Source: Candidatus Nanoarchaeia archaeon | Lineage (GTDB): Archaea; Nanobdellota; Nanobdellia; Woesearchaeales; SM23-78 | Direction: 5' to 3' | NCBI GenBank assembly: GCA_035289665.1 | Contig: DATDWO010000043.1 | Span: forward strand, 611 to 64,610 | DNA length: 64,000 bases | In this document: piece by piece, positions 4,140 to 43,105 of the stretch | Layout of the letters: each line of letters opens with the position of its first letter | How positions within the stretch are numbered: the stretch's first letter is position 1 | Program-made: the position numbers and the translations under genes | Notes under the pieces: generated by a model | The model's database searches: none | Told to the model about the DNA's origin: nothing | The model's input: only the letters and a program-made list of their open reading frames with translations

Positions 4140-4349
4140 CTAACGATTGGCTAGTTTGATGTCTTCTGCCTTCACTGTTTTTCTACCGGCGTGAGCCGCT
4201 AACTCAGAAGCCTTCTTTGCTAATTCGATGCCGTACTCTTCCAAAGCATCTCTCAACTCTGCCTTGCCATCCTCTCCCACGCGATCAGCACCGCCTTTCT
4301 TCAGAATACGCTCCATAGCAGCGAGCGGAAGTTCGTTTGTTTTTGGCAT
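4140..4349 (-). CDS. Archaeal histone (HMfA/B family)
   Basis: 69 aa; [19 protein letters not shown]...[24 protein letters not shown] matches archaeal histone fold signature. Confidence 0.85.
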
Positions 4350-4514: not shown

Positions 4515-5495
4515 TTGAAAACAAAGATATCCCTTATTATCCTCATCGGTTTTCTACTCCTTTCTTCTTGCACAACTAAAAAAGAAAGCGATAAACTTGA
4601 CATCACCCAAGCCTTTATCGGCGGAAACGTAGGCTTAAACGTCTTTTTACTTGAGGGACTGCCTCCCCCCGTTGTTTATGATAAAGGTACTTATCCTTTT
4701 GGCGTGGGCGTCACCATTGAGAATGTAGGTGAAGGCGATGTAGGACCTGGGACACCCAATCCCTTTGTTCGCGTACGTTTGGAAGGCATTAACCCTACTG
4801 AATTTGGCACCACGGATGCAGCGGTTGTCCAAGACCTTGCCGTTCCCTTACGAAGCGCCAAACGAAACTTTGACGGCACCATCCTACCTGGAGAAGTTAC
4901 CACGGCTGTATTTGAGCCTTTGAACTACTTACCTGACCTTCGAGGCAATCATGAATTCACGATTCGCGCTGATGTTTGCTATGATTATACTAACTTAGCA
5001 ACTGCTAAGATCTGCATCAAAGATGAAGTCTTAGAAAACATCCAAGATGACAGCATCTGCAGCTTGGTCGGAGAGAAATTCCCCCAAAACAGTGGTGGAC
5101 CGGTACAGATCACTTCATTAGTAGAAAACCCATTGTCTGACAACAAGATTCAAATCAGCTTTGTCCTTGAACACGTTGGCAAAGGAGAATTTTTCGGCCG
5201 AGACACCAATGAAATCTGCGACTTTAGCGTACGAAACTTCAACAAATATTTCATCGATGTCATCATACGACCCTTGGCTGCGCCTGATTTAGCGGTAAGC
5301 TGCACTCGATTTGGTGGAACCAACCAAGGAAGAATCAAACTCTTCCAAGGAGCCCCAGCTACCATCCAATGCGTTGTTCAACGCACAGGGCCTAGCAAGC
5401 GACGCATCTACCAAGAAATCATGGAAATTGAACTTAGATACCGTTATGGACAGTTCATTGAAACCCCGATCCTCATTCAAGATGTTACTAATTAA
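4515..5495 (+). CDS. Secreted lipoprotein, paralog 1 of tandem pair, unknown function
   Basis: Signal peptide with LLSSC lipobox; shares FIGGNxGL..LEGxPPPV..NVGExxVGP..NPFV..RxNFDGTILPGE..DVCYDYTN..KIC.KD motifs with next gene. Confidence 0.55.
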   Translation: MKTKISLIILIGFLLLSSCTTKKESDKLDITQAFIGGNVGLNVFLLEGLPPPVVYDKGTYPFGVGVTIENVGEGDVGPGTPNPFVRVRLEGINPTEFGTTDAAVVQDLAVPLRSAKRNFDGTILPGEVTTAVFEPLNYLPDLRGNHEFTIRADVCYDYTNLATAKICIKDEVLENIQDDSICSLVGEKFPQNSGGPVQITSLVENPLSDNKIQISFVLEHVGKGEFFGRDTNEICDFSVRNFNKYFIDVIIRPLAAPDLAVSCTRFGGTNQGRIKLFQGAPATIQCVVQRTGPSKRRIYQEIMEIELRYRYGQFIETPILIQDVTN

Positions 5496-5506
5496 CTCTT
5501 CTTATT

Positions 5507-6499
5507 ATGAAATCAAAGACGCTCTGGATCCTTTTGTTCCTTGTTCTCCTTACTTGGTCTTGCAAAAAACAAGACTCGGGAGTTATCCAGCAGACGTTCA
5601 TCGGAGGCAACCAAGGACTTTCTTTTAAGATACTCGAAGGAGCCCCGCCCCCCGTGATTCAAGATGAGGGCAGCAGCCCCTTTTCTGTTTCTACTACCCT
5701 TTCCAATGTCGGTGAGGCTGAAGTGGGACCTGACACCGAAAACCCTTTTGTACTGGTTCGACTCCTTGGGATTGTACCTGCACAATTCGGAACTAAACCT
5801 GAAAACCTCTACCAAACCCTGAGCCACAAACTCAACGGTGCGAGAAGAAACTTTGACGGCACCATCCTACCTGGAGAGATTGAAATCGCCACGTTTGAAC
5901 CCTTGACTTTTTTAGGTAATGTGCTGGAAACGAACGTCATCACCCTGCGACTCGACGTTTGCTACGACTATACCAATTATGCCACTGTGAAAATCTGCTT
6001 GAAAGATGACATCATAGAAAATGCCCAAGATTCCAGCCTTTGCAATTTACGTGATTTGAACCTTCTTGTAGGCAACAGTGCAGGACCTTTACATATCGTA
6101 TCGGCCGATCAAAGCCCTGCTGGATTTGATCGCATCCAAGTCAACCTTGTGGTTGGGCATGTTGGAAGAGGAATGAATTTCCGAAGAGGCACGGAAGACC
6201 CGCAAAAAGCTTGCGACTTTAGTCAACAAAACCGCGACGCGTTCTTTGCTACGCTTAATGTTAAGTATGAAGACCCTCACTTTAAACTCAGCTGTCAAGG
6301 CTTAACTCAACAAGGGCCGGATGGAAGCACCTTTGGCGAGATCCGGTTGTTTGACAATGCTCCCACGACTGTGACGTGCTACTTGAAGCGCGCCGAACCG
6401 ATTAAAAATAGGGTTTATCAAAGCATAATGAATGTGAAAATCAAGTATCGGTACGGGGAGTTTGCCGAGATACCGATTGCGGTACAGGATGTGCATTAG
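5507..6499 (+). CDS. Secreted lipoprotein, paralog 2 of tandem pair, unknown function
   Basis: Signal peptide LTWSC; collinear similarity over full length with 4515..5495. Confidence 0.55.
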   Translation: MKSKTLWILLFLVLLTWSCKKQDSGVIQQTFIGGNQGLSFKILEGAPPPVIQDEGSSPFSVSTTLSNVGEAEVGPDTENPFVLVRLLGIVPAQFGTKPENLYQTLSHKLNGARRNFDGTILPGEIEIATFEPLTFLGNVLETNVITLRLDVCYDYTNYATVKICLKDDIIENAQDSSLCNLRDLNLLVGNSAGPLHIVSADQSPAGFDRIQVNLVVGHVGRGMNFRRGTEDPQKACDFSQQNRDAFFATLNVKYEDPHFKLSCQGLTQQGPDGSTFGEIRLFDNAPTTVTCYLKRAEPIKNRVYQSIMNVKIKYRYGEFAEIPIAVQDVH

Positions 6500-6663
6500 A
6501 ACTTTGAATGACTTTATTTTAGAATTTTAACAATATCCTTACTTGAGAGAATAGGAAGTTTCATAAGAATAAACGAGTAGCGAGAGGAGACATTAACCTT
6601 TCAGCTGCTTTAGGAGCCTTTTCAGGACATTCCTCTAAATAAAGCTCGATCGCATCTTTTATG

Positions 6664-6966
6664 TTATTCAATGCTTCCTCGTAGTTCATGTTTTCTCTTA
6701 CGCACCCGATCCATTAATTCCTTTGTCGAAATCACTTCGCCCCTCTGAACAGCATTAAGCCTTTCCTTAATTATCTCACGAGTTTCATCATTGAGCGGAA
6801 GTTTATCCTCTTGATCATGTTCCACATAATTTTTTATGATCCGCTGTATAACGTTGTCGTAAGGCTCTTGATTAACAAGCTTAAGTTGGTCTAAACACTG
6901 TTTTGTTCCCTCTTTCACTCTTATTTGCTTTGATTCCTCCCCCTCAATCATTTCTTCTTGTTCCAT
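6664..6966 (-). CDS. Ribbon-helix-helix (CopG/Arc-like) DNA-binding protein, candidate regulator/antitoxin; start placed at MEQEEM (ORF extends to 7020)
   Basis: KQIRVKEGTKQCLDQLKLV..YDNVIQRIIKNYVEH fits beta-strand + two helices of RHH; divergent from toxSAS-like gene; shared intergenic region carries operator-like repeats. Confidence 0.45.
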   Translation of the reverse strand: MEQEEMIEGEESKQIRVKEGTKQCLDQLKLVNQEPYDNVIQRIIKNYVEHDQEDKLPLNDETREIIKERLNAVQRGEVISTKELMDRVRKRKHELRGSIE

Positions 6967-7084
6967 AGCCACCCTCTTTTCTGTCAACGCAAGTTGACAG
7001 CAGTAAACTACTGTATACAAAGCGGTTATTTAAACTTTTCGTTTAGATACCGCGCAAATCAGATTAGATATATAATATTTCCAA

Positions 7085-7111
7085 TTTTAAGCTTAAATAT
7101 GACCGCGCAAA
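7085..7111. repeat. 27-bp perfect direct repeat copy 1 (TTTTAAGCTTAAATATGACCGCGCAAA)
   Basis: Identical to 7168..7194. Confidence 0.9.
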
Positions 7112-7167
7112 GTACAAATTTGAAAGACGTACCGCGCAAATTATCATTTATTACTAAATATCTCATG

Positions 7168-7194
7168 TTTTAAGCTTAAATATGACCGCGCAAA
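7168..7194. repeat. 27-bp perfect direct repeat copy 2
   Basis: Identical to 7085..7111; ~40 bp upstream of 7232 start. Confidence 0.9.
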
Positions 7195-7231
7195 AGATAA
7201 GTTTAAATATACATGCTCCTATTCTTACTTC

Positions 7232-8299
7232 ATGGCATGGACAAAACCAGAAGGACACTCTAAGAGAAAAATTGATTTTGCAGGGACTATTCTAACTGGA
7301 GTTAAGAGTTCAGAAGAGAAAGAAGAAGCAATAAAAATATTGAACAATTGGCGAGCCGTTCATAGTTACCCTATGCATATATTCAAAATGAGGCTAAAAA
7401 GAGTATCAGAGAAACTAGATAAAGAATCATTATCTGTTCAGCGCCTTAAACGTGTCCCTTCAATTATTAAAAAATTACAGAGAGGATATCATGGAAACAG
7501 ACCCACTATGAAACTCTCGCAAATGCAAGATATCGCCGGTTGTAGAGTGGTCATGTCAAACGTCTCATTAGCAAAACAACTTTACAAAGATTCTTATATT
7601 AAAGGAGATCTAAAGCATACAAAAGTAAAAGAAAAAGACTACATCGCGAACCCAAAAGAAGACGGATACAGGAGTATTCATCTGATTTATAGGTACAATA
7701 GTGATAAAGAAGGTAAGAAAGAATATAATGGACTACTTGTAGAAGTGCAGATAAGATCAAAGCTACAACATTTATGGGCTACAGCTATAGAGACAGTAGA
7801 TTTTTTTACAAGACAAGCTATTAAGTCTAACGAAGGCGAAAAAGATTGGATGGATTTTTTTAGATTAATGAGCTCAGCATTTGCTATACTAGAAAATTGT
7901 CCATGCGTTCCAAATACTCCCACTGACGAAAAAGAATTGTTCTCTCAAATAAAAACTAAAGAAAGAGAGTTAAACGTTATAAAAATAATGACTGGATGGA
8001 CAAGAGCAATTAGGGTATTTGAGCAAGAAGTAAAAAAGAAATCTGAACTACAGTTTTTCTTATTAGAGCTAGATATTTTAGGAGAAAAGCTAACTATCAG
8101 CGAATATACAAAAGATCAGGAAAAAAAAGCGATAGCAGACTACGCAAAAGCTGAAAAAAGAAATGAAGGAAAAAAAGAATTTGACGTGGTTCTTGTTGGA
8201 GCTGATACAAGCAATGATTTAAAAAAAGCTTATCCGAACTACTTCGTAGATACTGGAGAATTCTTAATAAATCTTAAGAAGATTTTAGATAAGTATTAA
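7232..8299 (+). CDS. RelA/SpoT-family nucleotidyltransferase (small alarmone synthetase fold; toxSAS/CapRel-like single-chain architecture with ~140-aa C-terminal extension)
   Basis: Synthetase-domain motifs: LKRVPSIIKKL..DIAGCRVV..DYIANPKEDGYRSIHL..LLVEVQIRSKLQHLWA; 355 aa. Confidence 0.75.
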   Translation: MAWTKPEGHSKRKIDFAGTILTGVKSSEEKEEAIKILNNWRAVHSYPMHIFKMRLKRVSEKLDKESLSVQRLKRVPSIIKKLQRGYHGNRPTMKLSQMQDIAGCRVVMSNVSLAKQLYKDSYIKGDLKHTKVKEKDYIANPKEDGYRSIHLIYRYNSDKEGKKEYNGLLVEVQIRSKLQHLWATAIETVDFFTRQAIKSNEGEKDWMDFFRLMSSAFAILENCPCVPNTPTDEKELFSQIKTKERELNVIKIMTGWTRAIRVFEQEVKKKSELQFFLLELDILGEKLTISEYTKDQEKKAIADYAKAEKRNEGKKEFDVVLVGADTSNDLKKAYPNYFVDTGEFLINLKKILDKY

Positions 8300-42920: not shown

Positions 42921-43005
42921 GTATATCGCGGAGAAAGCATATACAAAATAAGTGTCCCTCCGCCATAGAAACCCATAAAAAGAGGACTTCGTTTCATCGA
43001 CTTAA

Positions 43006-43077
43006 GCGCTGGTCGCCAAGCGGTAAGGCACGAGGCTGCAACCCTCCCATTCCCCGGTTCAAATCCGGGCCAGCGCT
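43006..43077 (+). tRNA. tRNA-Cys(GCA), intron-less, U73 discriminator
   Basis: GCGCUGG...CUGCAAC anticodon loop...CCCGG-UUCAAAU-CCGGG-CCAGCGC-U. Confidence 0.75.
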
Positions 43078-43105
43078 TAATCTTCCAAACCTTTTTAACC
43101 CTCTC

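Follow-up and report, generated by a model that had tools for sequence, protein, structure and literature searches.

Promoter boxes of an archaeal CapRel-type toxSAS gene covary with the enzyme and are candidate operators for its own product

Gene content of the locus

The intergenic region described here lies within a window of 64 kb, by which we mean the whole stretch of DNA analysed, and separates an RHH-like gene on the minus strand from a RelA_SpoT gene on the plus strand, an arrangement that agrees with the preliminary description of this DNA (Table 1). The RelA_SpoT gene is predicted to encode a 355-aa protein with the Pfam domain RelA_SpoT (PF04607, 1.5e-20), residues 1–352 of which are matched by the PADLOC single-gene candidate PDC-S33 (1.5e-116). 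A profile built from 26 relatives matches the CapRel structures 7ZTB/9ERV over residues 8–353 of 355 (E = 3e-58), and the AlphaFold model of the protein (pLDDT 78) aligns with 7ZTB over its full length at a TM-score of 0.76 in Foldseek. The catalytic motifs of 7ZTB/9ERV are kept as GY146RSIH and E171-V-Q-I-R, in which Y146 corresponds to the G-loop tyrosine Y155 described for SJ46 (PMC9712102). The product has both the G-loop Tyr and the E-x-Q-x-R strand of a toxSYNTH catalytic domain, and the full-length profile, Foldseek and PADLOC matches also cover a fused C-terminal antitoxin/sensor domain, a pseudo-ZFD with anchors. Judged from these comparisons, the predicted protein is an archaeal member of the CapRel type of fused toxSAS. 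In bacteria, CapRel proteins pyrophosphorylate tRNA and act as sensors of phage proteins (PMC9712102). Neither Pfam nor the structure-profile comparison detected a recognisable DNA-binding domain in the 355-aa enzyme.

Table 1. Genes, promoter elements and boxes of the intergenic region and its flanking genes, in window coordinates
Feature	Position	Strand	Remark
RHH-like (VapB/DUF7557-like) antitoxin gene, 100 aa	6664..6966	-	Divergent neighbour of the toxSAS gene
Perfect palindrome CTGTCAAC-GCAA-GTTGACAG	6981..7000	.	Between TATA and ATG of the RHH gene
TATA-like element of the RHH gene (TTTAAATA on the minus strand)	7027..7034	-	Forms inverted repeat I1 with 7192-7209
Tandem duplication, ~83-bp unit (box, AT-rich spacer, box, TATA)	7047..7212	+	From D1 and global alignment
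Box 1, ACCGCGCAAA	7049..7058	+	Extra distal box, exact match, product of the 83-bp duplication
Box 2	7102..7111	+	Aligns with family box A (~-131), inside the first 27-bp repeat
Box 3	7131..7140	+	Aligns with family box B (~-99)
AT-rich spacer between boxes 3 and 4, includes AAGCTTAAATAT	7141..7184	+	Matches the conserved spacer of the orthologues
Box 4	7185..7194	+	Aligns with promoter-proximal box C (~-46), abuts BRE/TATA
Probable BRE/TATA of the CapRel-like gene	7195..7209	+	TATA TTTAAATA at 7202-7209
CapRel-type fused toxSAS toxin-antitoxin gene, 355 aa	7232..8299	+	From Pfam, PADLOC, profile and Foldseek
Asp158 codon GAT	7703..7705	+	Residue tracks base 3 of the GC(G/C)C core of the boxes

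The 100-aa RHH-like protein has no Pfam match of its own, and a word-indexed homologue search with it returned only the protein itself. An exhaustive search recovered 54 distant relatives, some of which reach VAPB_antitox or DUF7557 marginally, below threshold, and their alignment displays the strand-helix-helix pattern expected of RHH proteins. One of these homologues (locus L251) is followed by an overlapping RelE/ParE-like ORF, in place of which the window has a 42-aa HicB-like fragment. The label RHH antitoxin is a fair one on this evidence, and the gene is best read as part of a separate, decaying toxin-antitoxin pair. The window also encodes an archaeal histone.

Probable promoters of the two divergent genes

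The motif AAGYTTAAATA occurs four times in the intergenic region (7027-7037 on the minus strand; 7089, 7172 and 7199 on the plus strand) and once outside this region in the window (0.13 expected). Directly before the CapRel-like gene lie a purine-rich BRE and a TATA-like octamer, TTTAAATA, which is 22 nt from the ATG, at the near end of the ~22–30 nt usual for archaeal promoters; the corresponding AAAGATTTAAATAG element is nearly invariant among orthologues. Many genes of the window are preceded by AAAGCTTTAAATA-like elements in which the TATA ends 21–23 nt before the ATG, a geometry that is characteristic of archaeal leaderless mRNAs. The preliminary description had proposed a leaderless or short-leader transcript starting from the TATA-like AAGCTTAAATAT inside the repeat. 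The leaderless mRNA is predicted here as well, because the TATA lies just 22 nt before the ATG, but the promoter of the toxSAS gene is most likely TTTAAATA and not AAGCTTAAATAT.

The RHH gene has an upstream region of its own, comprising in order the minus-strand TATA, the perfect palindrome and a Shine-Dalgarno-like stretch, GAGGGTGG. This palindrome would be the more likely candidate for the operator of the RHH gene.

A four-box array enlarged by tandem duplication

The exact box ACCGCGCAAA was found four times by scanning the 64-kb window, always on the plus strand and with spacings of 53, 29 and 54, and no fifth copy exists on either strand of the window. The chance expectation is 0.12 copies, and none of 100 shuffles reached four. 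When one mismatch was tolerated only two sites were added (4105 and 17308), which is the chance level. The two occurrences of the 27-mer TTTTAAGCTTAAATATGACCGCGCAAA, at 7085-7111 and 7168-7194, do not differ at any base. Both the boxes with their spacings and the exact 27-bp repeats had been reported in the preliminary description, and these observations hold. The 27-mers are part of a longer tandem duplication with a unit of ~83 bp, in which the units ~7047-7129 and ~7129-7212 share 76% identity in global alignment (65/86 columns); the repeat family D1 pairs 7074-7124 with 7157-7207 at 82%. Within the two units the perfect blocks are TACCGCGCAAAT and the 27-mer, while the stretches between these blocks are just ~50–60% identical. 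In the upstream unit the TATA has degenerated to TTTGAAAG, with the boxes and the 27-mer left unchanged.

Both copies of the repeat point to the toxSAS gene. The earlier proposal that each divergent gene had received one promoter-plus-operator unit therefore gives way to a tandem duplication of the upstream module of the toxSAS gene. The canonical module of the orthologues has three boxes, to none of which box 1 corresponds; the conserved spacer element of this module is aTTTTATACTAAAAAAT.GCTATTTTAcAc.TAAAatta. The four-box layout of the window is, as far as the alignments indicate, the family module enlarged by the 83-bp tandem duplication. Further duplications of the module are present at other loci (L039, L054, L032, L043, L064 and L157).

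Conservation of the boxes across orthologous loci

Conservation was assessed at 80 orthologous loci from species-representative genomes, whose proteins are 53–77% identical to that of the window and derive from Woese-, Pace-, Nano-, Aenigm-, Micr- and Iainarchaeota, from Methanoperedens and from a few CPR bins. The protein family as a whole has 2,000 or more members. Six metagenome assemblies contain this contig as well; their intergenic regions match the window at 100% identity and are uninformative for conservation. The box recurs upstream of the toxSAS orthologue at ~60 of the 80 loci, always on the coding strand and at nearly fixed positions of ~-131 (A), ~-99 (B) and ~-46 (C). Box C is the most conserved (83/91 loci); this last box is fused to the nearly invariant promoter element, and in the orthologues the stretch from TATA to ATG often holds a partial box, cCTGCGCAAt. 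The logo compiled from 200 boxes, tAACCGCGCAAAA, describes a 12-nt box in direct orientation. Matches to a degenerate box pattern number 152 in the 18.3 kb of upstream sequence (260 nt per locus), or 8.3 per kb, against 58 in the other 355 kb, or 0.16 per kb, which is the chance rate; this amounts to a 50-fold enrichment upstream of the gene, at fixed offsets.

The spacings between boxes peak across the family at 31–33 bp (46 cases) and 53–55 bp (51 cases), and the summed spacings cluster likewise, at 86–88 and 106–108 bp, all of them multiples of ~10.7 bp. The preliminary description had read the spacings of the window as whole or half helical turns compatible with cooperative binding of RHH dimers. 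Spacing classes of ~3 and ~5 turns do emerge from the family, but the RHH protein as the binder does not. The spacings at duplication junctions (29, 44, 51 and 76 bp) are not all in helical phase, and the phasing argument for duplex DNA as the ligand is a soft one.

No conserved neighbouring gene family was found among 81 loci, and the recurrent 'families' around the loci are only antisense ORFs inside the toxSAS gene itself. The neighbours differ from locus to locus, including a tRNA gene, VapBC, an AsnC-type regulator and Fic. Since the boxes travel with the gene while the neighbours differ, the array is part of the toxSAS gene's own upstream module. When metagenome and viral contigs were scanned for double boxes, most hits proved to be tandem repeats, high in GC or coding, that are unrelated to the array, and the low-GC intergenic double boxes with canonical spacing lie before a toxSAS gene or at contig ends, with the exception of one locus where the boxes remain and the gene has been lost (L154) and one in a tRNA cluster (L115). 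A search for further boxes found none in the window and only the chance rate in the 355 kb of flanks of the orthologous loci; together with the contig scans, these searches revealed no regulon beyond the toxSAS gene. Among the bacterial and prophage CapRel homologues (28–43% identity), SJ46 included, no box array was found before the gene, and some of these box-less homologues retain the S-D-K loop. The promoter sites are gene-specific and conserved, as would be expected of an autoregulatory operator, and the earlier label 'operator array' is apt in that the boxes form a gene-specific, conserved and selected cis-regulatory array at a promoter.

Covariation of residue 158 with the box core

At some loci the boxes read ACCGCCCAAA in place of ACCGCGCAAA, and then do so in all boxes of the locus. 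The difference goes along with one residue of the enzyme, residue 158, which is Asp at GCGC loci and Asn, Lys, Gln or His at GCCC loci. Over 91 loci, Asp accompanied GCGC at 71 and a residue other than Asp accompanied GCCC at 14; a single locus (L081) combined D158 with GCCC-like boxes, and five were untyped. Residue 158 and the box core were concordant at 85 of the 86 typed loci (Fisher p = 3e-15), and the runner-up protein column, 170 in the same hairpin, reached just 3e-5. Boxes A, B and C and the box before the ATG each track residue 158 separately. Other box variants exist at three or four divergent loci, and the remaining variation (CC, CT or TT before GCGC; AAAA versus ATTT after it) is confined to few independent clades.

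The GCCC loci are scattered across the protein tree. Parsimony on this tree gives 10–11 residue changes and 9–10 box changes, corresponding to ~10 independent switches, and the same numbers result when the tree is built from just the N-terminal or just the C-terminal half. These half-protein trees, together with the differing replacement residues, rule out a recombination block that links the boxes to residue 158, and the residues flanking position 158 follow the background of each clade. Both box types are present within Methanoperedens-labelled bins (L056 versus L031, L034 and L035) and within Iainarchaeum-labelled bins (L057 versus L030). In a prospective test, five proteins with N158 were picked by this residue before their DNA was seen, and all five carry ACCGCCCAAA boxes. 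Such co-evolution of site and residue is what a self-read operator would be expected to display. A direct RNA–RNA pairing between the box and codon 158 was also considered and rejected, in that the codon changes from GAT to AAT, CAT, AAA or CAA do not complement the change of G to C in the box.

According to the predicted secondary structure, residue 158 lies in a coil (155–162) within the hairpin that joins strand 149–154, which follows the G-loop Tyr146, to strand 169–176, which carries the catalytic E171-x-Q-x-R. The loop around it is lysine-rich (SDKEGKK). Predicted secondary structure and the RelA/SpoT fold place residue 158 beside the acceptor-substrate site. Asn, Lys, Gln and His are hydrogen-bond donors that favour guanine, whereas Asp favours cytosine or the N1/N2 edge of guanine. 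Because of these donor and acceptor preferences, the residue replacements would fit a direct contact to the base pair that is swapped from G:C to C:G.

Proposed mechanism and alternative explanations

With site and residue co-evolving in this way, it is probable that the toxSAS protein itself recognises the box. A narrower reading, towards which we lean modestly, is that the boxes are DNA operators of the CapRel-type toxSAS gene, read by its own product in autorepression. Residue 158 would make a base-specific contact with the box, and the protein would bind the double-stranded promoter DNA cooperatively on one helix face. Occupancy beside the BRE/TATA and over the start site would repress transcription, a negative feedback that could limit the amount of an enzyme with lethal potential, and competition with tRNA after viral activation could relieve the repression. 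Duplex DNA is the presumed ligand because the proximal box is fixed to the TATA, because the boxes lie outside the predicted leaderless mRNA, and because the spacings follow the helical repeat. The position of the covarying residue in the catalytic domain of a protein with no recognisable DNA-binding domain counts against self-reading. In the CapRel/toxSAS literature that we found, there was no report of binding to the own promoter and no biochemical evidence for binding of double-stranded DNA by any toxSAS.

Alternatively, the enzyme could read the boxes as RNA, either in a leader or small RNA that serves translational feedback or as a decoy/antitoxin RNA of a type III-like kind. We regard this as unlikely, although the covariation is equally compatible with it and toxSAS enzymes bind RNA and recognise tRNA by its acceptor end, as FaRel2, PhRel2 and CapRel do at the acceptor stem (bioRxiv 10.1101/2024.07.05.602228). 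TATA-like elements upstream of some boxes (AAGCTTAAATA in the window, TTTATACTAAAAA in orthologues) could likewise give rise to such transcripts. However, the proximal box is directly upstream of the BRE/TATA, a leaderless mRNA would exclude the boxes, the spacings are multiples of ~10.7 bp, and the unit lengths are irregular, unlike those of type III arrays. A structured cis-regulatory RNA or riboswitch is ruled out by three results: Rfam gave no match above noise, the fold stability is not unusual (z = -0.78), and RNAalifold returned four trivial pairs with no covariation. No terminator was found between the array and the gene by a sigma-70 promoter/terminator scan, which is uninformative for an archaeon.

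A host transcription factor encoded elsewhere might read the boxes, with residue 158 covarying indirectly through host lineage and tRNA. The boxes do occupy classical positions of archaeal regulators, beside the BRE/TATA and over the start site, and such a factor would make up for the lack of a recognisable DNA-binding domain in the enzyme. We nevertheless hold this to be quite improbable. There is no box elsewhere in the 64-kb window and none above chance in the 355 kb of flanks, and the gene passes between phyla without losing its boxes; both box types are found inside bins of the same genus-level label, and each of the ~10 independent matched switches would need a double coincidence.

The preliminary description had instead attributed the four boxes to the neighbouring RHH protein, which would autoregulate both divergent genes through one 27-bp unit each. 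The RHH-like gene is adjacent and divergent, box 1 is just 14 bp from its minus-strand TATA, and RHH proteins are known to bind arrays of short repeats. Nonetheless, this explanation is very unlikely. At ~60 loci the boxes precede the toxSAS gene with no RHH neighbour and no shared neighbour family, so that operator and RHH gene do not occur together in related genomes. The RHH protein is almost devoid of close relatives, and its distant homologue at L251 has GGTACC-type palindromes (TAGGTACCTA) at the promoter and no box. In the window both 27-bp copies face the toxSAS gene and the RHH gene has the palindrome of its own, and binding by an RHH protein leaves unexplained why the boxes covary with toxSAS residue 158. 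From these comparisons, the RHH gene is a neighbour and no conserved partner of the boxes. Finally, a functionless array produced by neutral, recent tandem duplication of AT-rich intergenic DNA has the 83-bp duplication itself in its favour but a practically negligible probability, given that the two units are perfectly identical exactly in the boxes and so much less alike between them, and that the same box is kept among proteins as divergent as those compared here.

Within the reading of the boxes as DNA operators of the toxSAS gene, the sequence of the box might in addition reproduce, as DNA, the tRNA that the enzyme targets. Read as ACCGCGC-A, the box resembles the 3' strand of an acceptor stem (positions 66–72) followed by the discriminator A73, and the G/C switch would fall at pair 2:71. 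We give this extension a low probability; the tRNAs within the compared DNA (n = 16) are few for a comparison of acceptor stem with box type. If it holds, the loop with residue 158 would inspect the target acceptor stem and read the promoter alike, and whenever specificity switched, under viral counter-measures or in a new host, all the boxes would have to follow. Free tRNA and promoter would be rivals for a single surface, which would couple expression to the activation state. Such mimicry of tRNA by the box would account for the repeated specificity switching of a closed feedback loop, and the promoter sequence could then predict the tRNA specificity of the enzyme. Specificity switching has been proposed as an evolutionary escape from viral tRNAs (bioRxiv 10.1101/2024.07.05.602228).

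Comparison with known systems

CapRel(SJ46) (7ZTB, 9ERV; PMC9712102) is the closest known relative in architecture, with full-length homology, the toxSYNTH domain, the pseudo-ZFD antitoxin/sensor domain with its anchors, and the G-loop Tyr, and it shares the organisation as a single-gene system in variable neighbourhoods rich in toxin-antitoxin genes. The window protein belongs to an archaeal (DPANN) subfamily and is just 32% identical to it, and the two groups differ upstream of the gene, where CapRel(SJ46) and the bacterial and prophage members have no box array and the archaeal subfamily has a conserved one. CapRel-type toxSAS are model single-protein antiviral sensors; the control of their level is not described in the CapRel/toxSAS literature found, and the archaeal members have been unstudied so far.

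A variable toxSYNTH surface that reads individual base pairs of a nucleic-acid duplex would be common to the tRNA reading of toxSAS and to the recognition proposed here. The ligand is tRNA in the former case, whereas the covarying ligand in our case is the DNA before the gene.

In type III systems (ToxIN and relatives), direct repeats likewise stand immediately upstream of the toxin gene and match the specificity of the toxin. Those repeats are regular, transcribed tandem units that a terminator sets off from the toxin gene and that are processed by an endoRNase toxin. The array described here alternates between spacings of ~32 and ~54 bp, is followed by a promoter, and precedes a RelA/SpoT-fold pyrophosphokinase. 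An assignment as a type III RNA repeat array was rejected on these three grounds, namely irregular spacing, a promoter in place of a terminator, and a RelA/SpoT toxin.

The autoregulation of type II toxin-antitoxin systems offers another parallel, in that repeated operators lie over the promoter of a toxin gene and negative feedback is the likely logic. In these systems the antitoxin supplies the domain, RHH, HTH or AbrB, that occupies operators within the promoter of its own gene, and the toxin serves as co-repressor. The present system differs in having no separate antitoxin and no DNA-binding domain, with the specificity residue located in the catalytic loop of the toxin; its sites repeat in one orientation at distances of 32 and 54 bp, whereas type II sites are adjacent palindromes. 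Enzymes that double as regulators of their own expression are known as trigger enzymes, among them E. coli AlaRS, which acts on its own promoter, ThrRS, which acts on a tRNA-mimicking mRNA operator, PutA and BirA. The likeness to these enzymes is proposed here on a comparative basis. To our knowledge, no RelA/SpoT-fold enzyme and no defence toxin has been described as regulating its own gene, and no such enzyme has been reported from archaea.

If the proposed mechanism is true, the toxin domain would act as a sequence-specific nucleic-acid reader for feedback, a new solution that dispenses with a DNA-binding antitoxin, and residue 158 together with base 5 of the box would constitute a ready-made specificity code. 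The array would also join the few cis-regulatory elements that are well defined in archaea, as one whose conservation spans DPANN phyla. As far as can be judged by comparative analysis, the array is a control element that is shared throughout the family of this archaeal CapRel-type defence toxin and matched to the enzyme itself, and it would represent a new variant of toxin-antitoxin autoregulation.

Distribution of the CapRel-like gene and its promoter module

Sequence identity of the CapRel-like protein is 60-77% in several archaeal phyla, in Methanoperedens and in a small number of CPR bacterial bins (orthologous loci L007-L086 from species-representative genomes). Its gene stands alone in every one of these loci, and the genes around it differ from locus to locus. 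This combination of identity across phyla, solitary occurrence and shifting gene context suggests that the gene and its promoter module have often been transferred horizontally as a unit. One copy of the gene lies on a contig (L212/L253) assigned by binning to a giant-virus MAG.

The covariation of residue 158 with the box core has an exception in L081 (CP060218.1), in which the boxes are GCCC-like yet D158 is retained. The 3′ half of the box also differs among clades, few in number, as seen from the variants CCCGCGTTT in L084 and L086, CCGCGCATTTTGACA in L053, and GCGCAATTTGA in L050 and L074. Boxes B and C are separated by an AT-rich spacer, aTTTTATACTAAAAAAT.GCTATTTTAcAc.TAAAatta, that is conserved too, with an equivalent in L008-L049; it may be a bend or serve as a second TATA-like element.

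Boxes without the CapRel-like gene

On the reverse strand of metagenome contig Ga0180009_10003851 (L154), the three canonical boxes are kept at spacings of 32 and 53, with neither a TATA element nor a CapRel-like gene around them. This box segment is flanked by imperfect direct repeats of ~35 nt, GAAGATGAAA..TTGAAGGTTTGG.., and an element resembling the flanking repeat, aAGtGGTTGGAGTTgATTA, is located upstream of box A in several orthologous loci. The repeat-like element could be the scar of an insertion or deletion, or else the terminal part of an ancestral ORF located upstream. A differently built array with a 28-nt box period, caagagaaACCGCGCAAAtatttt, was found on metagenome contig Ga0233444_10174236 (L106), a short, low-GC contig on which no CapRel-like gene is visible; here the same box might have been put to another use.

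Surroundings of the boxes in the window

The tRNA-Cys gene is the sole tRNA gene in the window, and its acceptor stem begins with G1-C2-G3-C4, the first four pairs of the box duplex, a single case that is of anecdotal value only. Next to the histone gene, the two adjacent proteins are paralogous to each other, have signal-peptide-like N-termini and are without a Pfam match.

In L251 (1757-2077), the homologue of the RHH-like antitoxin is followed by an overlapping RelE/ParE-like ORF of 106 aa, at the place of which the window has only a short HicB fragment-like ORF. The toxin-antitoxin pair adjoining the boxes in the window looks decayed. A perfect palindrome, CTGTCAAC-GCAA-GTTGACAG, is situated between the TATA element and the ATG of the RHH gene, and is likely the operator of this gene (or a 5′ hairpin).

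Features of the window and their positions
Feature	Position	Strand	Remark
Archaeal histone gene	4140-4349	-	adjoins the paralogues
Paralogous protein 1	4515-5495
Paralogous protein 2	5507-6499
HicB fragment-like ORF	6561-6689	-	42 aa
Palindrome	6981-7000		8+4+8
B-C spacer	7141-7184
tRNA-Cys	43005-43078
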